A stretch of 13,202 bases of DNA from a virus. Shown piece after piece: positions 1 to 13,202 of the stretch. Below the pieces are notes generated by a model, which did not search any database, had not been told where the DNA came from, and was given only the letters and a program-made list of their open reading frames with translations. Location of the stretch: positions 1 through 13,202 of IMG/VR virus record IMGVR_UViG_3300045988_115487, one strand, 5' to 3'. Position 1 is the stretch's first letter; each line of letters opens with the position of its first letter. The translations under genes were made by a program, and so were the position numbers.

Positions 1-73
1 AATACTCAAGTCCGTGGTGGACGGACAAATTTCTTCCCCACACGGACACATGTGTATGTCTATGACGGACACG
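1..73. repeat. Left inverted terminal repeat (73 bp) of a linear, protein-primed genome
   Basis: Bases 1-73 (AATACTCAAGTCCGTGGTGGACGGACAAATTTCTTCCCCACACGGACACATGTGTATGTCTATGACGGACACG) are the perfect reverse complement of 13130-13202. Identity ends at base 74 (A, versus C in the partner). The repeat lies exactly at the window edge and starts with the reiterated 5'-AA. Confidence 0.97.
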
Positions 74-101
74 AAAAAAGACCCCGGTCAAAACCGAGGT
101 C
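74..101 (-). terminator. Rho-independent terminator ending the long minus-strand transcription unit
   Basis: Minus-strand RNA GACCUCGG-UUUUGA-CCGGGGUC forms an 8-bp stem with one G.U pair (101->94 with 87->80) and a 6-nt loop. UUUUUU follows at 79->74. The element starts 14 nt after the TAA stop at 116-118 and ends 1 nt from the ITR. Confidence 0.85.
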
Positions 102-115
102 AAACATTTGTTCGC

Positions 116-1441
116 TTACTGGAAAAGTGGGTCGAACACAAATTCACCAAAATCCACACATTCAATCTGGTTGATATCATATCTCAAATAGTTTCTTTTT
201 TCAGTATTAATTGCATGCATAATTAAATACACTTTTTTCTCTGAAATTTTGATAACCCCTTGTACAATCTTGAATAAATTCGCTTCCCCTGCTGTGCCAG
301 TTTCTTTTCCCCTAAGAATCACGCTACACGGTAAAGTACAGTCTGTTGCATTGAAATGGATTGCAGGACTGTCAATAGAACCCACTTCCAACGGAGTACC
401 GTCCAGTTTTAAGTTTGGAACATTTATCTCACTGAGTTTAAGCTCTAAACATCTCACTTTAGCAGTGCCATTAAAAATGGAATATCTGATTTTCGCACCG
501 CCTTTACCTGGAATATTGGTGGTCTTTGTAAAAGTTGTACCATACTCAATACTGTTAATCGGCTTAAAATAAAGTCCGTCAAACGCTCCAATCACCATAT
601 TTAGAATATTCTTATGACCCTGTTCGGACGGGTGTACACCGTCATTTGAAAAAGATGATTCATACAGCATACCCTGATACGCTGGTATAACACTAAATCC
701 CAATTGAGCGGCTGAATATATCCAGATTTTAATTGCTTTAATCACACTGATATACTTTGTTGATGTGTGAATCCCCTGTTGATGTCCTTCCCATGTCCAA
801 CCCATAGGACACACAACGACATTTTTACAGTTTTCAAAATTATTTGATATTGCGCTCTGGAAATCAATCATTCCCTGACTGATATCGTTCTCAGCAGCGT
901 TCCTGTCATTATAGCTTCCACCAATAATAATTTTGACAATATTTTTCTTGTCGTTCACCGTCATACTGCTAGCTAACTCGTTTAGCATATTGGTGAAAGT
1001 TTTTGTCCCGTCCGCTTTAAAACCGTAACCGCCAATAGCACACAGTTTTACAGTATATCCATTTTTTTCAAGAGCACTTTTAAGCATATACGCCCATGAA
1101 TATTCCTTATTAGATATATTTTCTCCAGCCGCATAACTGTCACCTAAAATAAGAATCGTAGGTTTATTAACTCTAGCCAGTGCTCCCTGTAATAAGGCAT
1201 CCGAAATTATTTCTGAAAGCTCACCACTCTCTTTCATTTCTTCTAGAATTCTTCTCACTTCACTATTAATTTCCAGTTTTGCAAAATAATCTGTTACAAA
1301 ATTTTTCAACTCTTCAAATCTATCCTGCAAATTAGAGAAATCGTCCTGCATCCTAAGCCATTCATCCGTCAACTTTTTTATTGTTTCTATAATCCATGTC
1401 AAGTTCATTTCATGGAAATTCGTATATGGAAATTTAAACAT
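116..1441 (-). CDS. Tail appendage / receptor-binding protein with a central SGNH/GDSL hydrolase (esterase) domain
   Basis: 441 aa with an ATG start preceded by AAGGAGTG. The N-terminal ~90 aa are helical and coiled-coil-like (FHEMNLTWIIETIKKLTDEW...). SGNH blocks are readable: block I ILGDSYAAG (Ser102), block II AIGGYG, block III GGSYND (Asn178) and block V DGVHPSEQGH (Asp267/His270). A beta-rich C-terminal domain of ~150 aa follows. It is the last gene of the structural block, the position of gp12 appendages in phi29-like phages. Confidence 0.7.
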   Translation of the reverse strand: MFKFPYTNFHEMNLTWIIETIKKLTDEWLRMQDDFSNLQDRFEELKNFVTDYFAKLEINSEVRRILEEMKESGELSEIISDALLQGALARVNKPTILILGDSYAAGENISNKEYSWAYMLKSALEKNGYTVKLCAIGGYGFKADGTKTFTNMLNELASSMTVNDKKNIVKIIIGGSYNDRNAAENDISQGMIDFQSAISNNFENCKNVVVCPMGWTWEGHQQGIHTSTKYISVIKAIKIWIYSAAQLGFSVIPAYQGMLYESSFSNDGVHPSEQGHKNILNMVIGAFDGLYFKPINSIEYGTTFTKTTNIPGKGGAKIRYSIFNGTAKVRCLELKLSEINVPNLKLDGTPLEVGSIDSPAIHFNATDCTLPCSVILRGKETGTAGEANLFKIVQGVIKISEKKVYLIMHAINTEKRNYLRYDINQIECVDFGEFVFDPLFQ

Positions 1442-1454
1442 TTTCTCACACTCC

Positions 1455-2096
1455 TTAATACACTAACAAGAAGAACTCTTCTTTAAACATTTCAGTAATT
1501 TTACTCAACGCACTCATAGATTTTTCAAGCTTGAAATCCAACACCTCAAGTTCCGACATTCCCGTAGACTTTGTTTCTTTTTCCGTTTCTGTCGTTTCAT
1601 TTTTAGAATTCTTTGCGTTGTTGTTTGTCTCATTGTAGCTTGCTTTTCCTCCATAAGTAATGGTTGTGCTTCCCCTATCCACAAGTGACGTTGAGTTAAA
1701 CCCTGCTACTTTTTCAGCTGTTGAATCCGACCCGCTCGTTCCACTATTACTTTCCTGTTTTAAATTTTCTTTATCTTCTGTTTCAGACTTTCCTTTTCTG
1801 TCTCTTGTAATCGTCTCTGTTTTTGCGCCCTCTGTTTTGGAAATGGCGAGTTCTATATCATAGATAATCGAGAACAGTCTTTCATTTACAGATGACCATG
1901 AATTTAGAGCTAGTGCCATTTCAGTAGGTGACGGTATCAAAACTTCTAATTCAGCACATTTTAACAGAACATAGTTTTGAATATTTTCCTTTCCAATATC
2001 ATTTACCATATTGACAGGTAGATGATTTATGAAATTATCTTTCAACAGATTCTCATTCCATGCTAGCAGACCCTGCAAGTAAAGTTCCCCCGGCAT
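1455..2096 (-). CDS. Putative lower collar / tail tube protein (assigned by position)
   Basis: The track ORF is 1455-2114. The ATG at 2096 (MPGELYLQ...) is preceded by GAGGGGGGTGA, whereas the ATG at 2114 has no RBS. The gene lies directly downstream of the connector gene, as gp11 does in phi29. It has a Ser/Thr/Glu/Lys-rich central low-complexity region. I recognised no motif, so the function is inferred from synteny only. Confidence 0.4.
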   Translation of the reverse strand: MPGELYLQGLLAWNENLLKDNFINHLPVNMVNDIGKENIQNYVLLKCAELEVLIPSPTEMALALNSWSSVNERLFSIIYDIELAISKTEGAKTETITRDRKGKSETEDKENLKQESNSGTSGSDSTAEKVAGFNSTSLVDRGSTTITYGGKASYNETNNNAKNSKNETTETEKETKSTGMSELEVLDFKLEKSMSALSKITEMFKEEFFLLVY

Positions 2097-2973
2097 TATT
2101 TTCACCCCCCTCATTATGACGCAATTTAACGTTTAGATTGAGATTAAACATTCTGTTTGTCTTTTCGACCCCTTCTTTCAATGTTTCAAGCCATAGTTCC
2201 ACTTTTGTGAAGCACTCAATATTGTTACTGTTTACCTCATCCACTATCATGCGTTCTTTCTTGTCACTTCTCGTGTTTGGTATGCCAACCTCATTGCAAA
2301 ACATTTCTTCCCATCGTCTTAACGTGTCCTGTAATTCAGGGGCGATAAAATTCTTTTTCAAGTCATTGTTAAAAAAATCTAACGGGATATTGCCATCTCC
2401 TATTTTCAGTTTTTCATCATAGAAAACTCCAAGTTCACCCCTCATTACATCGTCTAGAATTTTCTTCATTGATTCAGCCTGACTTTTTCCTCTCACAGCG
2501 AAAAGGAATGACAGCTTACTGTTCATGATATTCATTTCACATGATTCGGCGGTCATAGCCATATTATCTGCATAGTAATTTACGATATCGGAAATACCAC
2601 TATAATCCGGCTGTAATTTGATAAGAGAACACTGAGTGTTGATTTTAGGCTCTAAAATGCCAGTCAACAGAGGATTGACAATTATAGCGTGTGTGGGATT
2701 ATAATAGATGTTATATCCTCTCAATCCGCAATGCTGGCATATAACACCAAACTTATCTGTATTCACAACCGCCAGATATCCATTTAGAAACAGTGAATAC
2801 AGAAAGTAATTTTTATCCCACATTTCAGGCAACTCAAACTCAAATACAGACATAACTTTTTCAAGCAAATACTTTTTGAAAAACATAAACATTTGTGTGT
2901 TTTTCGTGTGAAGAGTTGACGGACTGTAAGACGAATTAAACAAGTTTACCATTTCGTAACTGTATGGCATCAT
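2053..2973 (-). CDS. Head-tail connector (portal / upper collar), phi29 gp10-like
   Basis: 306 aa, close to the ~309 aa of phi29 gp10. The C-terminal segment WEEMFCNEVGIPNTRSDKKERMIVDEVNSNN...NLNLNVKLRH parallels phi29 gp10 [30 protein letters not shown]...GLNVKVKFRY as I recall it. The ATG start is preceded by AAAGGGGTG. Confidence 0.85.
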   Translation of the reverse strand: MMPYSYEMVNLFNSSYSPSTLHTKNTQMFMFFKKYLLEKVMSVFEFELPEMWDKNYFLYSLFLNGYLAVVNTDKFGVICQHCGLRGYNIYYNPTHAIIVNPLLTGILEPKINTQCSLIKLQPDYSGISDIVNYYADNMAMTAESCEMNIMNSKLSFLFAVRGKSQAESMKKILDDVMRGELGVFYDEKLKIGDGNIPLDFFNNDLKKNFIAPELQDTLRRWEEMFCNEVGIPNTRSDKKERMIVDEVNSNNIECFTKVELWLETLKEGVEKTNRMFNLNLNVKLRHNEGGENNAGGTLLAGSASME

Positions 2974-2974
2974 A

Positions 2975-3622
2975 TCACCCCTTTATAAATACAGAACTCC
3001 AATATTGAGCATACTCATAACGTTCTGGCTGATTCAGGCTTGCCGGTCTCAGATAGTTATACATGAATGCATTGGTCAGAGTTTTCAAGTCATGGTTTCC
3101 AGTTGCCCATTCACGCCAAGTCATATTGTAACTAGATGTAGCATACCATTCCGGTTCAATACCTCTATTGGCATCTCCCACACTCTCTTGATATTCGGCG
3201 AACAACACAGCGCACTGTTTTCCACCATCGTACCAGTCGTCATGCTTGCCGTATAATAAATCAAGCACTGAGAGTAGTTTTGTTCCGGGTGTCCACTGTA
3301 CAAGTCCTCTACCGGGTCCATCTGCAGTGGTTCCACCGCCAACCTCCAATAGTCCGGGATTCATGGTACTTTCTTTCTCCATGTTTCCAAGTAACGCCAT
3401 ACGCGCAGTAGCACTCCAACCTCTCTCTTTGAAATAATTGTTAATGTTTGCGGCATTTTGCATCATCTTATCACGGGGAAAATATCCCTGTACTGTGTCA
3501 GTAACAAGAACGTTCCAATTTCCAGATGGCAGGGGAATTTCACCGCCACCACCACCGGAACCGCCTTTTTTAAGTCCTATCAATAATGCCGAATTATTAT
3601 AAGGATATCTCAACGAACTCAT
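2975..3622 (-). CDS. Tail-associated peptidoglycan hydrolase (phage tail lysozyme fold, like the N-terminal domain of phi29 gp13)
   Basis: 215 aa with an ATGA overlap onto the upstream gene. The motifs LLGNMEKESTMNPG and GRGLVQWTPG match the GNxxxES...GxGLxQWT signature of the phage tail lysozyme family. A GGSGGGGG linker follows a short N-terminal segment. Confidence 0.75.
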   Translation of the reverse strand: MSSLRYPYNNSALLIGLKKGGSGGGGGEIPLPSGNWNVLVTDTVQGYFPRDKMMQNAANINNYFKERGWSATARMALLGNMEKESTMNPGLLEVGGGTTADGPGRGLVQWTPGTKLLSVLDLLYGKHDDWYDGGKQCAVLFAEYQESVGDANRGIEPEWYATSSYNMTWREWATGNHDLKTLTNAFMYNYLRPASLNQPERYEYAQYWSSVFIKG

Positions 3623-5010
3623 GCGTAATAAAATCCTCCTTCCAAGTAATTTTTAATTGTGGTTATTTCTTCTGAATAGGCACCAATGATATTAACATTG
3701 CCATTTTCCACGATATAGAAACCGTTCCCCATTGATGAGGGCACACCATTCTTCATGTAAGGTCTACCGTTATCGGCGTTATCCTCATCTGTAATCTCAT
3801 AACAATCGGTTATAAGCTGAGTATTTACGAGCATTGATGCAACTGTGTCCGCCGATGAAAGTGCAGTAGCTTCTGCTTTAGTGAGTTGTAAACCTAAATT
3901 CAACAGTGATGAAGCAGATCCAATCCAGTTACCCGAAACAATACCGCCAACTGCCCCGACTGCTGACCCGATAGCACCCGGCAAGTCATTTTTAATATCA
4001 CCAATGGAAATAGAAAAACCAACTTTTCCGGGAACATTTGCTAACATGTATTTTTCAGTACCTTTTACGATGTATACATATGCGACCGCACCACCTGTTC
4101 TGCAATCTATATCACATTGTATTGTCAGCGTGTTCTCAATGATTTTCGAATAATTCAGTTCAATACTTCCAAATCCTTGTATGAACAACTTTCCCCGTCT
4201 ATACGGATAGCTGTTTAGGTATGAACCTCTCGTTCCTGCTTGCGGATGACTAGGAACATTTACAGTTGTTGATACACGATCAATAGCGTTTGATGATAGT
4301 CTAACTGCTATGGCGTCCACTTCCCACCACCCCAAACCGATTTTCGATTCTATGACTACTTCATCTTCCACAATATCGTAGGGAAACCATAATACAGATG
4401 TTATATATTGTGCAGGGTTGAAAACCATTTTTGCAATATCTTCACCTAAATCCGCTAAATCACCAGTGCCCATCCAAGTCATAGATGAAAATACACTTTC
4501 AGAAAATTTTACAAAACCTGCGTAATTAAATTTATAGTATTCACACATACCATTTTTACCTATAACCCCTACCACAAAAGTTCCTGATTTAATACTGTTA
4601 GCTTGTGGAAAAAGAGGTTGATTTGCCATAGTTGCGTTCCGTGTAGGGGCGCTGAATGACGGATATAAAGCGTCTGATATTCTACCATCAAAATTGGTAC
4701 TAGTTCTTATGATGTAATAACTCTTCTCGCCTATTTCATCTTTAAAACTTGCCATCACATCTACTTCCATATGGCACACCCACAACCCCGTACTGTATTC
4801 CCAATCATCCACGAAATAATATCGTTCAAATTCCGGAATATAGCAGTAATTGATTTTTTTCGGACTCCAGTCTTTCGCAAACTGAAATGTGATTGTAGGC
4901 TTTAAAATGGAGGAAGGGGCTCTTAAAGCCCCCTCATAATTTTTACCACCACTCGTGGGAATCCATGTAGAATTTTTCGCTTTACCGACATTAAAACATG
5001 TCACTATCAT
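3619..5010 (-). CDS. Tail knob / distal tube protein, phi29 gp9-like
   Basis: 463 aa with TAGGAGG 7 nt upstream of the ATG. The N-terminal region YCYIPEFERYYFVDDWEYSTGLWVCHMEVDVMASFKDEIGEKSYYIIRT parallels phi29 gp9 [55 protein letters not shown] as recalled. The gene lies between the capsid and connector genes. Confidence 0.7.
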   Translation of the reverse strand: MIVTCFNVGKAKNSTWIPTSGGKNYEGALRAPSSILKPTITFQFAKDWSPKKINYCYIPEFERYYFVDDWEYSTGLWVCHMEVDVMASFKDEIGEKSYYIIRTSTNFDGRISDALYPSFSAPTRNATMANQPLFPQANSIKSGTFVVGVIGKNGMCEYYKFNYAGFVKFSESVFSSMTWMGTGDLADLGEDIAKMVFNPAQYITSVLWFPYDIVEDEVVIESKIGLGWWEVDAIAVRLSSNAIDRVSTTVNVPSHPQAGTRGSYLNSYPYRRGKLFIQGFGSIELNYSKIIENTLTIQCDIDCRTGGAVAYVYIVKGTEKYMLANVPGKVGFSISIGDIKNDLPGAIGSAVGAVGGIVSGNWIGSASSLLNLGLQLTKAEATALSSADTVASMLVNTQLITDCYEITDEDNADNGRPYMKNGVPSSMGNGFYIVENGNVNIIGAYSEEITTIKNYLEGGFYYA

Positions 5011-5025
5011 ACATGTGCCTCCTAA

Positions 5026-6222
5026 CTAATCGAGTAAGAAAACTACACCGTTTTCCGTGAAGTCATTGTAATATCTGTCATTGAAATGCCAGAAAATGTT
5101 ACTGTATCCGCCTCTTGCATTAAACGGTGATGGCGCTGACCATTCACCATAAGTTGTGATACCGACAGCTTCCTCATCGAATAATACTCCAAAAATATTG
5201 GAAGTAACTTCCCCCTCAGTATCAGAAACGACATTTCCGTCGGAGTTCATGTACGATGCTTTTACGTTGATTCCATCTGAACTGTCAATATTCTGCCAAA
5301 ATCCCACTTTTTCATGGTCTGCCATTTTAAGATAGCTGTCGTTAAAGATAGAGGACATAACAGTAGTGTCAATATTGTTCAGTTCTTCTGAATACAGATA
5401 CAATTTCTGCTTGTTGTATGGCGTATGCCTAGAAATCTCTTTTCCCGTCACATTAATGTGGAATTTTTGTGTCCTCTCAGTCATCCAATCGGATACTGTC
5501 TTAATATACCCTGTTGCCCATTTCATAAACGGCACAAAATTCTCTGGTTGTTTTACCGTTTCAGTAGTCAGCGTGGTTCCTGCCACATCATTGTATTTTG
5601 CCACAAGATGGATAACGTTGTCGGGGTCACCTTTTACTTTACCACCGATGAAGTTCACAAGCGTCATTCTTGCTGTTGCTTCATGCGCCTGTTCGATCAG
5701 ATCAGATGCATTTGTCATAACCATAGTGACGAACCTTTGAAATTCCTGTTCATTCTGCAGAGCAACGTTTAACTGGTCTCTAAACAGTGTAATATGTCTC
5801 TGATATACGTTTTGTCCGTAAAAATTTGTTTGAAGCACTTTCGGAATGGCAACCACCTGGTCGTCCACACTCGCACCGTTTTTCAAATCATATCTGTCAT
5901 CTTTTTCCCAATCAGAATCTGCGATGTTAAGTTTTCGCACGTGGTTTCCGAATCTCATATTATCCTGATACAAACCCTTGAACTTTCTGGAATACGGTCT
6001 GATAGAAAAAATGGTTCTGCTGAGCACCTGAGAAATCGCACCTAATAGTGGGTCAATTCCTAATCCGAGTGCAGTGGTGGCAACCGAAGTGAAATCACTG
6101 GTCGCAATTGCACTAATTGTGTTTCTACCTGTTGCCTGATTTACAATTTCATTTAAAACAGCTGCTGAATTAAAATTGTCTACATTAGGAGAATCTAACG
6201 ATAATTTAGTAACTGAACCCAT
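5026..6222 (-). CDS. Major capsid protein, phi29 gp8-like core without the C-terminal Ig-like domain
   Basis: 398 aa with AAAGGAGTG upstream of the ATG, directly downstream of the scaffold-like gene. Segments such as SRKFKGLY and FQRFVTMVMTNASDLIEQAHEATARMTLV resemble the gp8 segments LKKFKKG and [28 protein letters not shown] as recalled. It is the largest non-tail structural ORF. Confidence 0.75.
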   Translation of the reverse strand: MGSVTKLSLDSPNVDNFNSAAVLNEIVNQATGRNTISAIATSDFTSVATTALGLGIDPLLGAISQVLSRTIFSIRPYSRKFKGLYQDNMRFGNHVRKLNIADSDWEKDDRYDLKNGASVDDQVVAIPKVLQTNFYGQNVYQRHITLFRDQLNVALQNEQEFQRFVTMVMTNASDLIEQAHEATARMTLVNFIGGKVKGDPDNVIHLVAKYNDVAGTTLTTETVKQPENFVPFMKWATGYIKTVSDWMTERTQKFHINVTGKEISRHTPYNKQKLYLYSEELNNIDTTVMSSIFNDSYLKMADHEKVGFWQNIDSSDGINVKASYMNSDGNVVSDTEGEVTSNIFGVLFDEEAVGITTYGEWSAPSPFNARGGYSNIFWHFNDRYYNDFTENGVVFLLD

Positions 6223-6226
6223 GATA

Positions 6227-6589
6227 TCACTCCTTTACTGGCGGGTTAATAATTGATGCTAACATATCTCCTGTTGTTGGTGGTTCTGGAATCTGAGAAT
6301 TACTCAGGTTTCCAACCTGAATCAGTCTTGTAATCTCATCTAACCGGTTGTCCAGAACGCCCATACGCTGATTAAACATATCCTGAGTATTATTCTGAAT
6401 CGGAACCTGTACCGGAACTGGTGCCGGTGCTGGTGCCTGTGCCGGTGTTGGTGTCTGAATCTGAGCCGGTGCAGGTGCTGGCATCGTAGTGACCTGATAA
6501 TTCTGTGATGCCACTACTCCTGCAAGTTTGATAATATCATCTTTTGTGAATCCTGCACCAGACAGTGCAATGATATCTTCGATTTTCAT
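6227..6589 (-). CDS. Putative scaffolding protein (gp7 position) with a Pro/Ala-rich linker
   Basis: 120 aa with an ATG start, immediately upstream of the capsid gene. It has a helical N-terminus (IEDIIALSGAGFTKDDIIKLAG), a PAPAPAQIQTPTPAQAPAPAPVPVQVP linker and a helical C-terminus. The call rests on position and composition only. Confidence 0.5.
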   Translation of the reverse strand: MKIEDIIALSGAGFTKDDIIKLAGVVASQNYQVTTMPAPAPAQIQTPTPAQAPAPAPVPVQVPIQNNTQDMFNQRMGVLDNRLDEITRLIQVGNLSNSQIPEPPTTGDMLASIINPPVKE

Positions 6590-6595
6590 GTGTTA

Positions 6596-6898
6596 TCATT
6601 CCTTTCTTGTTAAATATTTTTTATTACAAAAACCTGCATAAATCTTTCCGCTGTCTGAGTATTCGCAAAGATACCATTCCATAGTAGCATCTGTGAACCC
6701 GTAACAAAAAACAGTACGTCCTTTTTGCATCTCTACAATGATATTTGCGTTTGTATCTGGCTTATCACGCAACAACAGAGGGGAACTCTTTGTGCTTATC
6801 TTGTATTCACCATATACGTCACAGTCTGGTATAATGTCAATCATTCCGTACTGTTCTTCAATATCAGGGTCTAGTAGAATTTTTGCGCCTAATGGCAT
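6596..6898 (-). CDS. Stand-alone bacterial SH3 (SH3b)-like domain protein, a possible cell-wall-binding module
   Basis: The track ORF starts at a GTG at 6907. The ATG at 6898 has AAGGAG 8 nt upstream. The C-terminal ~60 aa (LLLRDKPDTNANIIVEMQKGRTVFCYGF...WYLCEYSDSGKIYAGFCNKKYL) fit the SH3b pattern L.(V/L)R..P......I..(L/M).KG..V......W.......G..G(W/F)...KYL. No catalytic motif is visible. Confidence 0.5.
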   Translation of the reverse strand: MPLGAKILLDPDIEEQYGMIDIIPDCDVYGEYKISTKSSPLLLRDKPDTNANIIVEMQKGRTVFCYGFTDATMEWYLCEYSDSGKIYAGFCNKKYLTRKE

Positions 6899-6903
6899 CT
6901 GTA

Positions 6904-7098
6904 TCACTCCTTCACGTCCAGTTTATCGGCAAGTTTCTGAATTGCCATTGTATTGTTGTTCAGAACCTCTGTGAGGTTGTGTATCTCTTCTTTGTGGTTT
7001 TCAGTCTCTCTGTACCATAAATAAAAGGTTACTGCAAGGCAAGCTACAGGTACACCCAAAGAGCTAAATAACTGACTTACTGCCTGAATCCATTCCAT
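6904..7098 (-). CDS. Holin, BhlA/UviB-like (one N-terminal TM helix plus a charged coiled C-terminus)
   Basis: The track ORF begins at a TTG at 7146. The ATG at 7098 (MEWIQAVSQLFSSLGVPVACLAVTFYLWYRETENHKEEIHNLTEVLNNNTMAIQKLADKLDVKE, 64 aa) has GGGGGGAG 7 nt upstream. Its size and layout, one TM followed by a helical charged tail, match the BhlA/UviB holin family of Firmicutes. Confidence 0.65.
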   Translation of the reverse strand: MEWIQAVSQLFSSLGVPVACLAVTFYLWYRETENHKEEIHNLTEVLNNNTMAIQKLADKLDVKE

Positions 7099-7198
7099 AT
7101 TGTCACTCCCCCCTCTTTTGAATTGAGGGGAAGTGCTGTGAGCCAACCAAACTCATGTACACGGGTTCCGCCCGTTGGTTTTGTACCACTCCCCCTAC
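7099..7198 (-). promoter_or_regulatory. Structured intergenic RNA: anti-anti-SD / anti-SD / SD arrangement upstream of the holin
   Basis: In minus-strand RNA, CACUUCCCCU (7135->7126) can pair with either of two partners. One is upstream AGGGGGAGUG (7196->7187), giving 10 bp with one G.U and enclosing the hairpin ACGGG-CGGAA-CCCGU (7175->7161) and an AACCA/UGGUU helix. The other is the downstream holin SD copy AGGGGGGAGUG (7114->7104), giving 10 bp with one bulged G and an 11-nt loop. No U-tract follows either helix. Confidence 0.5.
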
Positions 7199-7204
7199 AA
7201 CGAT

Positions 7205-7233
7205 AGAGTATCACATCTTGAAATAATTGTCAA
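7205..7233 (-). promoter_or_regulatory. Possible internal promoter (TTGACA-17-TACTCT with TG extension)
   Basis: On the minus strand, TTGACA (7233->7228) is followed by a 17-nt spacer ending in TGA, then TACTCT (7210->7205). The -35 is consensus and the -10 is weak, partly compensated by an extended TGn. The site lies at the 3' end of the ATPase gene, and its predicted start falls at the 5' edge of the structured element. Confidence 0.3.
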
Positions 7234-8266
7234 GTAAATATTTTGATTCAATATCAGAAAAACTTACTAACCCGTCAAGGTACATCCCCCAGACCCATAT
7301 GAACTTGTGTCGGAAAGCGATTAAATCTCTTGTTGATGTGGAATAAGTAATTTGTGGCGAACCCTGTAAGTGTTGTGTGATATACAATTTTTCCTTGCTT
7401 TTATGGGTGTATACGGTTATTTCACCGACTGTCACAATGGGGACGTACTCGTTTATTGGCTCTGATTTGATATCCGAATAATCCTCTGCATAAAAATCAT
7501 TCTGGATTGACATCTTGTAAAAATCGCTGTCTTTGCCAACCATTTTGTATACCGCTGTCTCAGATTTTGCCTGTGAAATCGGGGAGTTGGCAAGATTGAT
7601 AAGGATAATACCTCTATCAGGCAGATAGCTGAATTCCTGCCCTGTTTTATGCATATCAGTGACTTTACGGATTAATCCTAGTTTTGCAAATATATCACAG
7701 TTTGCGTTTTCGCTATTTGACGCACATATGAGCTGTAAAGGTTTTTCCCCCACAAGCTCTCGATTTCGGTTTATGGTTTCATATCCATTTAATAGCGCAA
7801 TCGTGGCGTTTTTCAACTGAGGCTCCGTCTTTTCTGGAATAAATTCATCGTAAAACATCAACTCAACGTCTGCCGCTCCGAAACCTCTTAAATTGGATAT
7901 CGTGCCAAGTGCCGCGGAATAGCCAAGTGGTTCCCCTGAGTTTGTATATTTTTTTGTTTTCTCATCAAATTTTGTATCATAAAAACCTGAGTACATTTTG
8001 TTAATTGGTGACGGTGTAATGCGTCTACCGCAGTCCGCGTTATATTGCTTAAATGGGTTGAATTGTGGTGTGCGAATCATATCTATTTGAGTTTGGCGAG
8101 TTCGTAGGTAAATAAATTTTTTATTATTTTCCACGGCGTGTTTCAAAATACCGTATGTTTTTCCTGTTCCTCTGCCACCCCATATAAAGATGAAAGGACA
8201 CCCTGTTTCCAAGATGCCCTTTATATTCACATAACCGTTACTGTCGTACATTTCAGGTTTTTTCAT
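7211..8266 (-). CDS. DNA packaging (encapsidation) ATPase, phi29 gp16-like
   Basis: 351 aa. Walker A is FIWGGRGTGKTYG and Walker B is ELMFYDEFIPEK (phi29 gp16: IVFDEFIREK). NRNRELVGEKPLQLICASNS parallels gp16 FRNRERVRCICLSNA. The ATG overlaps the upstream stop (ATGA). Confidence 0.9.
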   Translation of the reverse strand: MKKPEMYDSNGYVNIKGILETGCPFIFIWGGRGTGKTYGILKHAVENNKKFIYLRTRQTQIDMIRTPQFNPFKQYNADCGRRITPSPINKMYSGFYDTKFDEKTKKYTNSGEPLGYSAALGTISNLRGFGAADVELMFYDEFIPEKTEPQLKNATIALLNGYETINRNRELVGEKPLQLICASNSENANCDIFAKLGLIRKVTDMHKTGQEFSYLPDRGIILINLANSPISQAKSETAVYKMVGKDSDFYKMSIQNDFYAEDYSDIKSEPINEYVPIVTVGEITVYTHKSKEKLYITQHLQGSPQITYSTSTRDLIAFRHKFIWVWGMYLDGLVSFSDIESKYLLDNYFKM

Positions 8267-8619
8267 TTCACGTATCCTGCAACAAGGAAGTCCCTGCCAC
8301 GCTGTGATTTTTTGAAAAATACAGATACTTTTCTGAAGTCCTCACCGCATTTTTCTGCCATTGTGATGATACGCTCGAAAGACTGAATGAATGAGGCTGA
8401 GGTTGTCACGAAAACTGTATCCGTTTTCACTTCTTCGATTGACAGAGTTTTTACCACTTCACCCTTTGCGTTCACATCTTCCACAATAGCGTAGTAGCCA
8501 AACTCAACAGTTGTTCCGGCGGCGTTGGAAAGACGGATTCTGCCCTCATCTTCGAACATTTTGAACATTAATTCCATTGTGTACTCATTTTCCTTGATGT
8601 TTGTTTTGATAATTTTCAT
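8263..8619 (-). CDS. Putative single-stranded DNA-binding protein (remote resemblance to phi29 gp5)
   Basis: 118 aa with an ATG start. The C-terminal half TVFVTTSASFIQSFERIITMAEKCGEDFRKVSVFFKKSQRGRDFLVAGYVK has the same pattern as recalled phi29 p5 [61 protein letters not shown]. Size and context fit. The call is tentative without a profile search. Confidence 0.35.
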   Translation of the reverse strand: MKIIKTNIKENEYTMELMFKMFEDEGRIRLSNAAGTTVEFGYYAIVEDVNAKGEVVKTLSIEEVKTDTVFVTTSASFIQSFERIITMAEKCGEDFRKVSVFFKKSQRGRDFLVAGYVK

Positions 8620-8655
8620 GCTGTTTTCTCCTTTTTTCTTTTATGCTGTTTTTCT

Positions 8656-8871
8656 CTACTTTCCATAGTGTACAAATTCAGCCTCTGTCATGGATGCTTT
8701 CACAACCTCTGTATCCATAGACACTTTTACAGCTTTTACTCCTGTCTCAGCTTCATAAGATTTTTTAATCTTTGTAGCTGTTACATTTGCACCGTAGTAG
8801 GTTTTTTCAACAGTCTGTCCGTTTTCGTCTGTAATCTTTGCTGTTACTTTCTCAATGCTTCTTGTAATCAT
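8656..8871 (-). CDS. Putative histone-like dsDNA-binding protein (remote resemblance to phi29 p6)
   Basis: 71 aa and the first gene after a consensus promoter, with a GGAG RBS. GANVTATKIKKSYEAETGVKAVKVSMDTEVVKASMTEAEFVHYG parallels recalled phi29 p6 GNLTMEQAQWRMKRKYKGEPVQVVSVEPNTEVYELPVEKFLEVA. The call is tentative. Confidence 0.35.
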   Translation of the reverse strand: MITRSIEKVTAKITDENGQTVEKTYYGANVTATKIKKSYEAETGVKAVKVSMDTEVVKASMTEAEFVHYGK

Positions 8872-8916
8872 GTTTTCAACTCCTTTTTATTTTGTTTTGT
8901 TTTTTGTTACAAGTAT

Positions 8917-8945
8917 ATAATAGCATATGTGAACGTGTATGTCAA
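8917..8945 (-). promoter_or_regulatory. Sigma-A/sigma-70-type promoter (TTGACA-17-TATTAT) driving the p6-like gene and downstream genes
   Basis: On the minus strand, TTGACA (8945->8940) overlaps the polymerase TGA stop. A 17-nt spacer and TATTAT (8922->8917) follow. Downstream come an A-rich leader and the GGAG RBS of the 8871 ATG. Confidence 0.8.
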
Positions 8946-11053
8946 GCCTTTTCTTTAGTATTTTTTAAAAAATCGTGCCATAAGTCAACACTATTAAGAA
9001 CGTTTAAATATTCCAGTGTAAGCCCTACTGTATATTCAGAGGGTCGTATAACTACATTTCTGGTGATATACACGCTCTTGTCAGGGTTGGCAGGGTCTGG
9101 ACTATAATAGCCATAGTCTGTATCATTATAAACGGATTCCGTGCCACCTGCATCCCTGAATGTGGTTCCGATTTTCAGAGCTTCCAGACCACCCATTTTT
9201 TGCAGTTCCACCGCACCTTTTTCCTTTTCCACACCTGCTATTGTGATTTTGAGTCTACCGTTTTTTTCCTGCGCGTATTTTTTTGCACCTAGTGTAATAA
9301 ATCTATCCGACGTGCCCTCATATTCATACACGCCTAAATAATGTTCCACGCCTTTTGGGTCTGAAGCATGACCGCCATTATCTATGGAATCCTCCTTTAA
9401 TCGGATATTCAGTTCATCAAATTTATCCTTGATTTTGGGGTAACGCTCCGTCATCAATATTTTACATGAATCGGTATCACAATAAACAAAATCCTCGCCC
9501 GCGATGTTTACGGCAAGCTTGAGTCTCTGTCTGGCATGAGCAGTTACCCAACACCCCCACGCATACAGCATGAACGCTCTTTTGTTGTATTTCGCTAACT
9601 TTTCCGCTGTATCCCCATCCTCAACTGAAAACGGCTTGTCAGTGTTACTGTAAATAATATCAGGCTTGACCGGGTTTTGTGCCGCCATGCCATATAACGC
9701 ATTTATCAACTCTTTTGCTAGAGCGTATTCAAACTCCTTCCCTTTTACACCTTTTAAAGATGTTTTATCTGTAAACAAACTTTTCACTAGTTCCCTCAGA
9801 GATTCTGGTAGATAACCATATCCCGCTGTATAAAAATCTGTAAGTTCTGCCGTATCCCAGACGTATTCACCTTTTACAATCCCAAAATCGATATCATTTA
9901 GAGTGCATGAGTATTCACGTGCTGAGAGCAAGCGTCCGTTGTCCCAAACAGATTCGGTGCTTATGCAATACCCCTTATCTTTTGTCAGATAAGGCGCACC
10001 GTAATATACATCTTTTTGCCTGATATTTCGGAAATGGAACCGCCCCACGTATGCCTTGTGAAATTTTGTCCACCTTTCGAGGTCGTCCATACCGCAATTT
10101 CCCTGCCGCACAAATTTTGTCATTGGAAATTCGCAATTAAGCATAACGTCCGGATAAGAGCTTGCCCGGTCGAATGACGCAACGTTGTTGAGTATTTTTC
10201 CAACGTGATACCTGTTTGCATGCGTGTCACCACCCCTGAACTCTTCTCTGAGTAACGTGTATAAGCTCGTGTCACACATCATATTATGCAGTTTTTTATA
10301 ATTGTACTGTTTCATAGCTTGCCTTGCTTCTCTTCTGACATAGCCAGTAGAGGTTAATGGGAGAGTGTATAAGGTATCGTTATTATCCGTCAATCGTTTA
10401 TGCATTGCCTGTAATAATCCTATCACATCGTTACACCCGTATTCAATTTCCCTAGTTGATAATTCTGTCCACGGGTAACGTTGTTTATTATAATCAAAAT
10501 CTTTCAGCTTCTGATTCTCTACCCCACTATCACTCAAAAACTTGTCAAGACTTTTGTGCGTTTGCATATACGTACACCGGAACTCTAAATTCCCTTGCAT
10601 ATGATTTCCTGCTCTTATTCTGAGTATTTTACGAGGTTTGAGCGCAAACACCTCTTCTGGCTTTATTTCTATGTGTGAACGCAAAAACTGAAATTCGTAT
10701 GACAGGTTGTGCACAAAAGTCATTGTAATAAGGTGTTCATCTTCAATGCCTGTAAACAGTTCTTCGAGTTCGTCCCAATTTCTGCCGTACACGCATATTA
10801 TCTCATTATCGTCTAGTAATACGGCAAACTGCCATAAATACATAATGCTCTGTTCGATTCCAGAAAGTCGTGTAGTTTCAATGTCAAAAGCGCATATGCA
10901 ATTTCGGTACGACTGCTTTGCGAAGCGTTGTTTTCCTCTCATGTTAGGAGTTCTGTATATCTTCTGTATTCTATGTATCAATTCTTCTCTTTGCTTTTTG
11001 CCACTCCCTATACTGATTGAGTAATTCATCACCAGATTTTTCACCTCTATCAA
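8942..11053 (-). CDS. Family B DNA polymerase, protein-primed type (phi29 gp2-like)
   Basis: Readable motifs: Exo I CAFDIETT, Exo II HNLSYEFQFL, Exo III YGCNDVIGL, motif A FDRASSYPDVM (DxxSLYP-like), motif B KELINALYGMAAQ (Kx3NSxYG-like), motif C VYCDTDSCKI and KxY LGAKKYAQ. The start is uncertain. 11053 is a TTG, the ATG at 11029 has GAGGTG 12 nt upstream, and the ATG at 10942 would remove the overlap with the upstream gene but has no RBS. Confidence 0.95.
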   Translation of the reverse strand: MIEVKNLVMNYSISIGSGKKQREELIHRIQKIYRTPNMRGKQRFAKQSYRNCICAFDIETTRLSGIEQSIMYLWQFAVLLDDNEIICVYGRNWDELEELFTGIEDEHLITMTFVHNLSYEFQFLRSHIEIKPEEVFALKPRKILRIRAGNHMQGNLEFRCTYMQTHKSLDKFLSDSGVENQKLKDFDYNKQRYPWTELSTREIEYGCNDVIGLLQAMHKRLTDNNDTLYTLPLTSTGYVRREARQAMKQYNYKKLHNMMCDTSLYTLLREEFRGGDTHANRYHVGKILNNVASFDRASSYPDVMLNCEFPMTKFVRQGNCGMDDLERWTKFHKAYVGRFHFRNIRQKDVYYGAPYLTKDKGYCISTESVWDNGRLLSAREYSCTLNDIDFGIVKGEYVWDTAELTDFYTAGYGYLPESLRELVKSLFTDKTSLKGVKGKEFEYALAKELINALYGMAAQNPVKPDIIYSNTDKPFSVEDGDTAEKLAKYNKRAFMLYAWGCWVTAHARQRLKLAVNIAGEDFVYCDTDSCKILMTERYPKIKDKFDELNIRLKEDSIDNGGHASDPKGVEHYLGVYEYEGTSDRFITLGAKKYAQEKNGRLKITIAGVEKEKGAVELQKMGGLEALKIGTTFRDAGGTESVYNDTDYGYYSPDPANPDKSVYITRNVVIRPSEYTVGLTLEYLNVLNSVDLWHDFLKNTKEKA

Positions 11054-11429
11054 TAAACAACTCTAGCGCTTTTGTGCTGTCATATACTCTCCCAAGCGAA
11101 TAATCACGAACGGACTCCATGAACTCACCAAACTCATTGAGTTCTTTATAGGTTTTAAATTTGACCCCCAACTCTTCAAGTTTTGCCATTTTCCGTCTGG
11201 CAATTCTCCTTTGTCCCGAGACGCTGTATAAATCAGATTTCTCAGCGTGTTCTAAGGCAGACAATGCGCCCCGTCTCTGGCGGGCGGTCACTATCTGACT
11301 TTCAGGTGGTAGTTGTTGTAGCATATACTGTATATCATTCTTTGCACCCATTCCAAAATTTCGGTTTTGGGCTAAGACTTTTAGTTTTCTTATCACCTTT
11401 GTGCGCCGTTTTGCGTAATCTGTCGTCAT
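10971..11429 (-). CDS. Candidate terminal (priming) protein
   Basis: 152 aa, very basic, predicted helical, immediately upstream of and overlapping the protein-primed polymerase gene, as gene 3 precedes gene 2 in phi29. The N-terminus YAKRRTKVIRKLKVLAQ resembles phi29 TP EYARLVKNTKAKIARTKKKYG as recalled. The ATG forms an ATGA overlap with the upstream gene. The call rests mainly on synteny and composition. Confidence 0.45.
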   Translation of the reverse strand: MTTDYAKRRTKVIRKLKVLAQNRNFGMGAKNDIQYMLQQLPPESQIVTARQRRGALSALEHAEKSDLYSVSGQRRIARRKMAKLEELGVKFKTYKELNEFGEFMESVRDYSLGRVYDSTKALELFIDRGEKSGDELLNQYREWQKAKRRIDT

Positions 11430-11737
11430 GACACTATGTCCTCCATTTCGTGAATATGCCCCAAGTGAAACATTATCGCAGAACGGCTCAGTACTCGCGC
11501 TTTGCTCATATTACACTGTCTTGCCAATTTCTCCACTTCCCTGTATGTTCTGTCTGTGAGATATACGCTTGTGTTATATTTCGGCATAACTCGAGGGGAT
11601 ACTATAACCCGAGAACCTATGTCGCCGAACTCTGAAACAAAGTACACGGCGTGCTCCAAGTATTCACTCACGGTTGTCCCATATTCTTCTGACCAATTGT
11701 ATATTCTGATATCTAGACGGAGTGATAATTTTCTCAT
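11426..11737 (-). CDS. Tandem ribbon-helix-helix (RHH) DNA-binding protein, likely transcriptional regulator
   Basis: 103 aa containing two RHH-like units. Unit 1 is RKLSLRLDIRIYNWSEEYGTTVSEYLEHAVYF. Unit 2 is TSVYLTDRTYREVEKLARQCNMSKARVLSRSAIMF. Each reads as beta-strand, helix, G/N-x-S/T turn, helix. The ATG forms an ATGA overlap with the upstream gene. Confidence 0.5.
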   Translation of the reverse strand: MRKLSLRLDIRIYNWSEEYGTTVSEYLEHAVYFVSEFGDIGSRVIVSPRVMPKYNTSVYLTDRTYREVEKLARQCNMSKARVLSRSAIMFHLGHIHEMEDIVS

Positions 11738-11895
11738 TGTTTTCTATCCTTTCGATCCTGTTTTCTTCTACGTTTTTCTTTCCGTCTATTTTCTCTGCCC
11801 ATTTCGTCTGTTGTGCCTAAGATATAACCTGAAACAAACATTATCACAAAAGTTATTAACAGACACATTGTGTCACTCATAGTTGTTGCTATCAT
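11734..11895 (-). CDS. Small membrane protein with a polybasic C-terminal tail
   Basis: The track ORF starts at a GTG at 11934. The ATG at 11895 has GGAGGT 6 nt upstream and lies just after the upstream TAG stop. The product is 53 aa: MIATTMSDTMCLLITFVIMFVSGYILGTTDEMGRENRRKEKRRRKQDRKDRKQ, one TM segment plus an Arg/Lys-rich tail. Confidence 0.55.
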   Translation of the reverse strand: MIATTMSDTMCLLITFVIMFVSGYILGTTDEMGRENRRKEKRRRKQDRKDRKQ

Positions 11896-11899
11896 TTTG

Positions 11900-12466
11900 C
11901 TACCTCCAATAAATATTTCTCTCATCACTATCACTAATCAAGAACACGTCGTCATATTCGGTATACTTATTCACATTCCCATCATGAAACAAAATACTAA
12001 TTCCGTTCTCTTCCACTTTCAAAAACCTCACATTTCTTTTAAATCCGTTTATATAAACAGTTTCCCCAAAATACCCTTTTTTAATCTTTCGGAATAGCTC
12101 TTTCAAATCATGATTAAAATCAATAATTAAACTGTGAATACCCGTATATTTGATTTCAGCGGTTAGACCGTAAAACTCAATTCCAGTTTCTCCTAGAATA
12201 GCGTCCTCACCTGCAAATTCGACAAAACCATTGATTGTAACTAGAGTGTCTTTAACCACGATAGCTTTTTTAAGCTCTTCTAACTCATCAACAGGCTCAA
12301 TAGGTACTAGACATGTATCTTCAATTCTTGATATGTCATTAAATAATGAAGCGTTGTAGCGTATGGAACCGTCTGAAAACCTATGGAAACTATACTTGCC
12401 ATTTTTGTTCATATATTCATCAAGCTCCTGAGTGTGTCTTATTATTAATTCGATTGTATCTGCCAT
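11900..12466 (-). CDS. Hypothetical early protein
   Basis: 188 aa with an ATG start preceded by AAAGGAGC. It is in the same orientation and packing as its neighbours. I recognised no motif. Confidence 0.6.
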   Translation of the reverse strand: MADTIELIIRHTQELDEYMNKNGKYSFHRFSDGSIRYNASLFNDISRIEDTCLVPIEPVDELEELKKAIVVKDTLVTINGFVEFAGEDAILGETGIEFYGLTAEIKYTGIHSLIIDFNHDLKELFRKIKKGYFGETVYINGFKRNVRFLKVEENGISILFHDGNVNKYTEYDDVFLISDSDERNIYWR

Positions 12467-12516
12467 TTATGCTCCTTTTCTCCCCGTTGTGCCGGTAGGA
12501 CAGCTTATTTCAATGT

Positions 12517-12753
12517 TTATCTGATACTACAACAAATTTTTACTTCTGCATAAGGAACACTAGCCACGATTCTTTTGCTACGGTCATATATAAACAATTC
12601 TTCCATATCGTCATCAAAATTTAATTTTACTCTATCAAAGAAGAAAAATAAGCCGTTTATAAAAACGCCACAAGAAGCACCATGATAACCTGTTCTAAAA
12701 ACTTTATTAAGCTCTCTAATTTTTTTGATGAAATATTTTTTATTTTTTTTCAT
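12517..12753 (-). CDS. Hypothetical early protein (first ORF of the early transcript)
   Basis: The track ORF begins at a TTG at 12774. The ATG at 12753 (MKKNKKYF..., 78 aa) has AAAGGGGT 7 nt upstream. I recognised no motif. Confidence 0.5.
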   Translation of the reverse strand: MKKNKKYFIKKIRELNKVFRTGYHGASCGVFINGLFFFFDRVKLNFDDDMEELFIYDRSKRIVASVPYAEVKICCSIR

Positions 12754-12777
12754 TTTCGTACCCCTTTCACTCAATTT

Positions 12778-13045
12778 CAGGGAATAGTACTGAGTCCTCT
12801 CGCTCGCTTAATTCATCCGCTTCACAGCTAAATCAAGGATTAACGTCTAACTTGGCATTAGCTGGTGATTTTCTACTAAGTATCACCACTGTGCGTCATT
12901 GTCCTACTGCTCTCACTTTCTTTAAGTCCTTTACCGGGTACTTATTCTTCACACGCTCATTCCGATTTGTATCGGCATAACTGCCATGTTACTAACGTGT
13001 AGCCCTATGGGTTCCCGATCTTTCCTGCTTTCTATTCCCTGTTAC
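12778..13045 (-). ncRNA. Candidate structured non-coding RNA (pRNA-like candidate) or long structured 5' leader
   Basis: About 265 nt with no ORF of 60 aa or more and no RBS-preceded ORF on either strand, beginning a few nt downstream of a consensus promoter. The ends pair perfectly over 10 bp: CAGGGAAUAG (13041->13032) with CUAUUCCCUG (12787->12778). Internal helices include UGGUGAU/AUCACCA (12888->12882 with 12869->12863, 12-nt loop), CAGCUAA/UUAGCUG (12864->12858 with 12831->12825) and CCGAU-ACAA-AUCGG (12975->12962). No terminator is visible at the 3' side. Confidence 0.35.
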
Positions 13046-13051
13046 AATTAT

Positions 13052-13080
13052 ATAATACCACACTTATACCACAATGTCAA
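13052..13080 (-). promoter_or_regulatory. Early sigma-A/sigma-70-type promoter (TTGACA-17-TATTAT)
   Basis: On the minus strand, TTGACA (13080->13075) is followed by a 17-nt spacer and TATTAT (13057->13052). The site lies about 50 bp inside the right ITR and points into the genome. Confidence 0.8.
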
Positions 13081-13092
13081 TAGTTTTTTATA

Positions 13093-13121
13093 ATTATACC
13101 GCATTTTATTGTCTGTGTATA
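13093..13121 (-). promoter_or_regulatory. Possible second (tandem, upstream) early promoter (TATACA-17-TATAAT)
   Basis: On the minus strand, TATACA (13121->13116) is followed by a 17-nt spacer and a consensus TATAAT (13098->13093). The -35 matches 4 of 6 positions. The site lies 41 bp upstream of the stronger promoter. Confidence 0.35.
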
Positions 13122-13129
13122 GCGCACAG

Positions 13130-13202
13130 CGTGTCCGTCATAGACATACACATGTGTCCGTGTGGGGAAGAAATTTGTCCGTCCACCACGGACTTGAGTA
13201 TT
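13130..13202. repeat. Right inverted terminal repeat (73 bp)
   Basis: 13130-13202 is the exact reverse complement of 1-73 and ends exactly at the window edge. Confidence 0.97.

Follow-up and report, generated by a model that had tools for sequence, protein, structure and literature searches.

The window, the full 13,202-nucleotide (nt) stretch of viral DNA IMGVR_UViG_3300045988_115487 (positions 1 to 13,202), is the genome of a very small phi29-like podovirus, and the RNA encoded on its minus strand at 12778-13041, predicted to head the early transcript, is almost certainly a RAGATH-8 RNA (Rfam RF02687). We infer that RAGATH-8 serves in this phage as an accessory, horizontally exchanged, host-directed RNA module that would be first made during infection; the explanation as a whole, which joins RAGATH-8 identity, origin in the early leader, accessory status and autonomous action on the host, is the best we can offer and is put forward tentatively, as close to an even call. 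These data narrow the options for the function of RAGATH-8 and make the question testable: the RNA is tied to 5' ends at the heads of phage early operons, independent of phage proteins and of the gene that follows, it is limited to phages of one gut bacterial family, and near-isogenic 13-kb genomes occur in nature with it and without it. Throughout, minus-strand coordinates are given from high to low (low to high for the spans of whole elements and in Table 1).

The early leader RNA is a full-length member of RF02687

A genome-wide scan with all Rfam families returned RF02687 as the only match above threshold. The match scored 200.9 bits against a gathering score of 86.7, covered model positions 1-276 of 276 without truncation, and had boundaries coinciding with the 10-base-pair (bp) closing helix named in a first-pass annotation of this DNA that had been made from the letters alone. 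That perfect helix (13041-13032 with 12787-12778) is P1 of the Rfam model. The region had also been described as non-coding, which was borne out, the sole open reading frame (ORF) of at least 20 aa on the transcribed strand of 12778-13041 being a 23-aa GTG ORF that overlaps the promoter. The proposal of a candidate novel structured leader was half right: the closed multi-helix 5' leader of the early transcript is real, but it is a full-length RF02687 member and hence not novel.

RAGATH-8 has been an orphan RNA since 2015. In the Weinberg et al. 2015 screen, RAGATH reportedly denotes RNAs Associated with Genes Associated with Twister and Hammerhead ribozymes; the phage context is itself present in the window, and the Rfam scan found no ribozyme in this genome. 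A blastn search of the RNA against 50,697 deposited phage records gave no match, and no mention of RAGATH-8 or RF02687 was found in the literature searched. The class is already described and the points added here are modest, namely an occurrence in a phi29-like podovirus, near-isogenic natural genomes that differ in having or lacking the RNA, a 5'-end rule and a covarying loop-loop contact; some of the family-level points may already stand in the RAGATH-8 discovery paper. The window RNA shares with the rest of the family its P1, two three-way-junction domains, conserved junctions and a setting in phages of gut Clostridia; however, it is the lowest-scoring member seen (200.9 bits, compared with 240-318 for the others), has small deletions in the internal loop of domain A and a shorter variable loop, and resides in a ribozyme-free 13-kb phi29-like podovirus of lytic type rather than in a temperate phage.

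Covariation supports a closed two-domain fold with a loop-loop contact

Homologs were collected from viral contigs of IMG/VR (119 pattern matches, 52 of them true by nhmmer), from GTDB with one genome per species (10 true matches) and from human gut metagenomes (at least 119 matches), and the resulting 118 unique sequences were reduced to 54 representatives below 93% identity. Covariation was counted on a MAFFT alignment of these representatives, with 500 shuffles and slid pairings as controls. Across the representatives, 92% of cells in the Rfam structure are paired and 54 of the 71 pairs change on both sides; none of the shuffles reached the observed values on any of the measures, and the slid controls dropped to 29-41% paired. 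In the window sequence itself, 61 of 62 mapped model pairs are canonical. The single-sequence fold of the window RNA has an energy of -66 kcal/mol (z = -2.57), and 2 of 200 shuffles were equally good. Family covariation is the decisive support for the fold, the single-sequence fold being just modestly better than shuffles.

The support extends to each part of the molecule. P1 has 94% of its cells paired and two-sided changes at 9 of its 10 pairs; helices 2, 3, 4 and 6 of domain A are 96-99% paired and helices 9-15 of domain B are 78-99% paired, in both cases with compensatory changes. The lower figure for helix 14 (78% paired) probably reflects misalignment in the variable loop. The two junction sequences conserved in RF02687 (AAGCAGGAAAGA and GCGAGAGGAC.CAG.AC) are both present in the window, at 13031-13019 and 12806-12788. 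Among the three internal helices drawn in the first-pass annotation, 12888-12863 and 12975-12962 belong to the covariation-backed structure, but the third, 12864/12825 (CAGCUAA/UUAGCUG), clashes with it. The AUCGG that had been read as a competing partner is merely the 5' strand of P2, and the proposed pairing of a UACUUA loop with a UAAGUA bulge is peculiar to the window sequence, the homologous columns being paired in 38-63% of cells.

A different loop-loop pairing, one that the Rfam structure line does not show, is found across the family: the first hairpin of domain A has UGG(U/C), which is complementary to the (A/G)CCA of domain B's last hairpin. The 4 bp are paired in 99.5% of cells, a value that none of the 500 shuffles reached, and the slid controls gave 2-49%. 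The covarying position is occupied by UA in 29 representatives, CG in 16 and UG in 9, with zero mismatches and no C-A; the close relative L126 pairs UGGU with ACCA, and the window pairs UGGC with GCCA. This covarying 4-bp pairing fits a contact within or between molecules, two arrangements between which sequence does not discriminate. An all-against-all column scan for further tertiary pairs gave just one-pair extensions of P2 and P2a.

Close relatives lack the RNA, which is not a packaging RNA

A protein search with gp16 identified 27 relatives, 26 of them with an ATPase 95-98% identical, and RAGATH-8 is carried by only one of the 27, L126, in which the P1 strands and flanks are identical to those of the window and the interiors have diverged. 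In 16 relative contigs that span the site (gp16 95-98% identical), the RNA of ~265 nt is cleanly absent: the same inverted terminal repeat (ITR) and promoter are followed after ~40 nt by the Shine-Dalgarno sequence (SD) and ATG of the same first gene. One such relative, L142, has 94% nucleotide identity to the window genome. Since the short leader of the relatives still resembles the first ~22 nt of the RNA, loss by deletion is as likely as gain. The absence of the RNA from these relatives shows that it is dispensable for the core functions of the phage.

These genomes bear directly on the lead hypothesis of the first-pass annotation, that the element is a prohead or packaging RNA (pRNA), which here would be a divergent and enlarged form bridging the connector and the gp16 ATPase. 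The phage does possess a phi29-type gp16, connector and major capsid protein and a protein-primed family-B DNA polymerase (PolB), and, like the phi29 pRNA (RF00044), the RNA would be expressed early from near a genome end, with its 5' and 3' ends paired and two loops with 4-nt Watson-Crick complementarity that, in the window RNA, also covary across the family. However, RF00044 gave no match at E<=10 in 12400-13202 and none genome-wide at the gathering threshold, the window RNA is 264 nt long compared with 117-174 nt for pRNA, and it is transcribed away from the genome end, into genes. The loop complementarity originally cited (UACUUA/UAAGUA) is not conserved. Because the RNA is absent from the closest relatives with the same motor, it cannot be the pRNA; conversely, it is found overwhelmingly in phages that lack that motor, 178 of the 179 other carriers having no phi29-type genes and instead an HK97 capsid or integrases. 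Searches of more distant Guelinviridae-like tiny podoviruses found neither a pRNA nor RAGATH-8. A packaging role is therefore rejected by model, relatives, carriers and loop conservation alike, and we consider it extremely improbable.

Removing the RNA from consideration as pRNA leaves little space for another candidate. Across the lineage (the window and relatives L120-L144), which has a gp16-type ATPase, all non-coding gaps are <=~70 nt outside the RAGATH-8 site, and the RNA itself is absent in most members; with no spare gap above ~70 nt, the lineage therefore packages its DNA without room for a pRNA and appears to have no pRNA gene at all. These results take a wrong pRNA annotation off a phi29-like gut phage, and a lineage of this kind bears on the universality of pRNA among gp16-type motors.

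Two further observations concern the same site in other tiny phages. In the close relative L133 (1-600), the first early gene is duplicated as a tandem paralog (ORFs 18-314 and 362-598) where the window has its RNA; a different RNA at this site was considered and rejected, the sequence being that of the paralog. In L303 (MT836263.1), a 13-kb human-gut podovirus whose PolB is ~40% identical, a sub-threshold type II hammerhead lies near the early end at 12447-12510 on the minus strand (32.2 bits and E 0.011, the gathering score being 37). Small RNA modules may be especially frequent in the early leaders of such tiny phages.

RAGATH-8 is spread over unrelated phages of one host clade

The 178 loci noted above have no protein in common with the window phage, and the other RAGATH-8 loci sit in contigs of 20-75 kb. 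In them the RNA adjoins, on the downstream side, a divergently transcribed CI-like helix-turn-helix (HTH) repressor and precedes Bro-N/ORF6C and AntA/KilAC antirepressors, with tyrosine integrases, a serine recombinase and an HK97-family capsid gene nearby. Nearly all other carriers are temperate Lachnospiraceae phages without phi29-type genes. The 10 GTDB matches all fall in gut Lachnospiraceae and allies (Blautia, Mediterraneibacter, Ruminococcus sp. and Anaerosacchariphilus), and apart from the generic CI-like HTH repressor upstream, RAGATH-8 has no conserved neighbour protein. Altogether, these data show that RAGATH-8 is spread over unrelated phages of one host clade. The suggestion that the element is an origin-proximal structure is unsupported, given its position deep within the 20-75 kb contigs.

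The Lachnospiraceae metagenome-assembled genome STD2_98 has three RAGATH-8 copies on three contigs (L147, L154 and L167), and thus several prophages each with a copy of its own. Cultured strains with RAGATH-8 prophages include Anaerosacchariphilus hominis NSJ-68 (L178), Ruminococcus sp. AM22-13 (L177) and the Lachnospiraceae isolates behind L158 and L172. As a separate observation, four loci have a reverse transcriptase (RVT_1) gene no more than a few kb from RAGATH-8 (for example L083:11-1274, minus strand in the locus), which suggests a diversity-generating retroelement or similar in those four phages.

RAGATH-8 lies at RNA 5' ends

The TTGACA-17-TATTAT promoter that had been proposed upstream of the RNA is present at 13080..13052, with 11 of 12 positions matching and an additional TG extension. 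Upstream sequence was surveyed in 111 unique loci for which it was sufficient. A strong sigma-70 promoter lies close upstream of the RNA in 53 of these loci, and in 41 of the 53 the -10 box ends 6-11 nt before P1, so that transcription starts at P1; the promoter-to-P1 distance in the window is 10 nt. In 21 of the 111 loci a hammerhead signature lies directly upstream, and in eight loci (L084, L060, L038, L068, L007, L081, L046 and L020) an Rfam-confirmed Hammerhead_II adjoins the RNA with a gap of 0-3 nt. The cut expected from the sequence of these hammerheads would generate a 5'-OH terminus 38 nt ahead of P1, starting with the stem I hairpin.

The promoter or hammerhead position is taken in 10 of the 118 unique loci by a hairpin whose stem covaries and whose loop, YCCAUCCAY, is conserved (L022:9900-9945, with equivalents in L107, L200, L202, L218, L222, L252, L254, L284 and L300). 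The same hairpin lies directly downstream of the RNA in ~17 of the 118 (including L021, L076, L091, L095, L172, L190, L207, L210, L215, L229, L266 and L276), is covered by no Rfam match, and may be a processing or protein-binding signal. Hence, where transcription does not start at P1, an element that produces or marks an RNA end adjoins the RNA. Taken together, these data show that RAGATH-8 is nearly always located at an RNA 5' end, provided by a promoter start or by an abutting type II hammerhead.

Further hammerhead and pistol ribozymes occur 290 nt to ~1.7 kb downstream of the RNA, after ORF1 (hammerheads in L076, L095, L037, L021, L116 and L019; pistols in L064 and L031), and type II hammerhead and pistol ribozymes thus punctuate the early operons of these Lachnospiraceae phages. 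This company, the invariant junction nucleotides and the origin of RAGATH-8 in the RAGATH strategy, which is said to have yielded the pistol, hatchet and twister-sister ribozymes, would suit an unrecognised ribozyme, for example a self-cleaving or ligating one. However, Rfam lists RAGATH-8 as a small RNA (sRNA) and not as a ribozyme, the RNA has no likeness to any ribozyme family, and a separate hammerhead is encoded where a defined 5' end is required, which would be superfluous if the RNA cut itself at that point. We regard catalysis by RAGATH-8 as very unlikely.

No shared expression platform was found downstream of RAGATH-8

A same-strand ORF with an SD follows the RNA within ~160 nt in 106 of 116 loci (median ~37 nt), with variable spacing, and the identity of this first ORF varies among loci. 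Intrinsic terminators are scarce, with just 22 on the same strand in 256 kb downstream of 100 loci and none within 3 kb in 78 of the 100. In the window genome none was found between the RNA and 101..80, where the sole strong same-strand terminator marks the end of the genome; the first-pass annotation was correct in that no terminator of the RNA's own was found after it. Pairing of the P1 3' strand with the SD was also considered and rejected, the energy of -5.55 kcal/mol showing no excess of complementarity over shuffled sequence (-5.08 kcal/mol, p = 0.23). Hence, neither a terminator-based nor an SD-sequestering expression platform was found across the loci examined.

These results weigh on two readings in which the RNA controls the operon behind it. 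A riboswitch-like sensor of a metabolite, second messenger or macromolecule could gate the early genes and, in temperate carriers, the choice between lysis and lysogeny. Such a sensor would accord with the position in the 5' untranslated region, with the complex fold and its invariant unpaired nucleotides, and with the location of the RNA in temperate phages between a CI/Cro-type switch and antirepressor genes; however, an expression platform is not conserved, few intrinsic terminators lie downstream and complementarity of the P1 3' strand to the SD is at shuffle level, the spacing and identity of the ORF vary, and the downstream genes have no common functional theme. A sensor of this kind is improbable.

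The second reading is a put-like processive antiterminator, in which the nascent RNA would bind RNA polymerase and confer terminator resistance across the early operon. HK022 put acts without phage proteins. Like put and lambda nut, RAGATH-8 lies directly downstream of an early promoter, in lytic as well as temperate carriers, and beside a CI/Cro-type switch, and, as with put, no dedicated phage protein would be needed. In contrast to those elements, RAGATH-8 is four times larger, has a closed architecture and has no downstream intrinsic terminators to overcome in the window genome and few across the 100 loci; unlike put, it requires a 5' end close by, and the relatives transcribe the same genes without the RNA. 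For lack of downstream intrinsic terminators antitermination was rejected, and we consider it highly unlikely.

In a few loci a second conserved non-coding element of ~235 nt follows RAGATH-8 in place of an ORF (L060:7126-7400, L191:1114-1390, L266:2330-2600, L276:4575-4850 and also L204). It has a closing helix of ~30 bp and two hairpins with UUUUA(A/G)UGUGAAA, and 19 of its 71 predicted pairs show compensatory changes among only four sequences. No Rfam family matched the L060 copy at the gathering threshold, and the element is possibly an undescribed structured RNA.

A model for autonomous action on the host

In the model that we favour, transcription would begin at the promoter beside the right terminal repeat, so that RAGATH-8 would form the first ~265 nt of the early transcript and be the first product made by the phage. 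It would fold into a closed structure in which P1 joins two three-way-junction domains docked by the 4-bp loop-loop contact, 3' exonucleolytic decay of the downstream mRNA would halt at P1 to leave a stable, P1-closed 5' fragment, and the conserved purine-rich junctions would bind a factor of the Lachnospiraceae host rather than a phage protein. There is no constant phage protein or downstream gene, yet the junctions are highly conserved, and the RNA therefore most likely acts by its own fold on a host component. Since 3'-to-5' exonucleases can trim back to P1, only the 5' end needs a dedicated cutter, and in a model of a P1-closed fragment other RNA modules may sit between the RNA and the ORF. 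That RAGATH-8 acts autonomously on the host, depends for its function on a free 5' end beside P1 and persists as such a fragment is a reasonable possibility, on balance somewhat short of probable.

Its main rival is a cis-acting leader, the riboswitch, antiterminator, ribozyme and pRNA being less likely. In this alternative the 5'-terminal RNA would stay on the early mRNA and protect it from 5'-end-dependent decay (by RNase J1/Y in Firmicutes) or boost the next gene. Several observations weigh against autonomous action and toward such a leader. The RNA is nearly always at an RNA 5' end made by a transcription start or a hammerhead cut, and the close SD-preceded ORF, on the same strand with no terminator between (106 of 116 loci; SD 10 nt past P1 in the window), fits a leader that stays on the mRNA. 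Hammerheads adjoin the RNA on its 5' side only and never on its 3' side (~25 loci scanned), the next ribozyme lying at least 290 nt downstream, after ORF1, and a cis model that needs a 5'-terminal position therefore explains them equally well. An effect of this kind would also be independent of the identity of the following gene. In addition, the invariance of J1/2 and J3/1 in the homolog alignment arises partly by construction, because the search patterns required both motifs; the independent Rfam consensus likewise shows these motifs conserved.

Against the leader, known bacterial 5' stabilizers are far simpler than this 264-nt fold, which has two domains, invariant junctions and a tertiary contact; moreover, near-identical phages have the same genes behind a 40-nt leader, and in several loci a hairpin or the second structured RNA of ~235 nt separates RAGATH-8 from the ORF. 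We therefore view a cis-acting leader as possible, though doubtful.

A more specific form of autonomous action would be that of an early "RNA moron" swapped among Lachnospiraceae phages, which would target the host in trans, for example by sequestering one of its nucleases, RNA-binding proteins or defence systems as a decoy or sponge, perhaps as a multimer held together by UGG(U/C):(A/G)CCA. We consider this version speculative and unlikely. Intermolecular loop pairing has precedents in the rings of pRNA and the cages of ROOL and GOLLD, the latter two being large orphan structured RNAs of phages or prophages that assemble into multimers. RAGATH-8 resembles ROOL and GOLLD as an orphan, phage-borne, highly structured RNA of patchy distribution with complementary loops able in principle to pair between molecules; however, it is much smaller, has no sequence or model similarity to them, and is tied to the 5' ends of early transcripts rather than to tRNA clusters. 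RAGATH-18, from the same discovery screen, is now identified as the guide-RNA scaffold of IS607 TnpB (PMC11061315), and it illustrates that a dedicated protein partner can exist for an orphan RAGATH motif. It co-occurs stably with TnpB, whereas RAGATH-8 is without a conserved neighbour protein beyond the generic repressor.

Genome organization and features of the early locus

ITRs are present at both ends of the window, which is therefore a complete linear genome of 13,202 bp, with every gene on the minus strand. Its proteins gave profile matches to a protein-primed PolB, the Podovirus_Gp16 encapsidation ATPase, a phi29-type major capsid protein, a gp10-type connector and a tail lysozyme, and the phage is on this basis assigned to the very small phi29-like podoviruses. 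The closest deposited relatives are uncultured human-faecal phages of 12-14 kb, the Amedibacillus phages AD70P2 (classified in the Guelinviridae) and AD70P3, and Clostridium phage HM2, to all of which PolB identity is <=47%.

The structured RNA begins 10 nt past the -10 box of the early promoter and ends 24 nt ahead of the first start codon, the SD of the first early gene beginning 10 nt beyond P1. The features of this locus are listed in Table 1.

Table 1. Coordinates of the RAGATH-8 RNA, its parts and adjacent features in the window.
Feature	Position	Strand	Details
Right ITR	13130..13202		73 nt; partner arm 1-73; arms 100% complementary
Early promoter TTGACA-17-TG-TATTAT (extended -10)	13052..13080	-	11/12 positions match; predicted transcription start ~13045-13043
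RAGATH-8 RNA (RF02687), 264 nt, full length	12778..13041	-	200.9 bits, E 1.5e-53
P1 5' strand CAGGGAAUAG	13032..13041	-	pairs with 12778-12787, closes the RNA
J1/2 junction AAAGCAGGAAAGA, purine-rich conserved single strand	13019..13031	-	upper-case in Rfam consensus; invariant in homolog alignment
Domain A: P2, large conserved internal loop, P2a, three-way junction with two hairpins	12934..13018	-	covariation
UGGC, loop of first hairpin of domain A, 5' half of candidate kissing loop	12983..12986	-	pairs with 12853-12856
Domain B: P3 stack, three-way junction with two hairpins, one with variable loop ending GAAGAAA	12807..12926	-	covariation
GCCA, 5-nt loop of last hairpin of domain B, 3' half of candidate kissing loop	12853..12856	-	
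J3/1 junction CGAGCGAGAGGACUCAGUA, conserved single strand	12788..12806	-	Rfam consensus and homolog alignment
First early gene, 78 aa, no family match	12517..12767	-	SD AAAGGGG 12767-12761, ATG 12753

No tRNA or tmRNA was found in the window. The GC content of the RNA region is ~0.41, compared with 0.31-0.36 in the adjacent sequence. A second promoter with identical hexamers, spacing and extended -10 (TTGACA-17-TG-TATTAT) lies at 8917-8945 on the minus strand, overlapping the 3' end of the DNA polymerase gene, and presumably drives the packaging and structural genes as a middle or late promoter.

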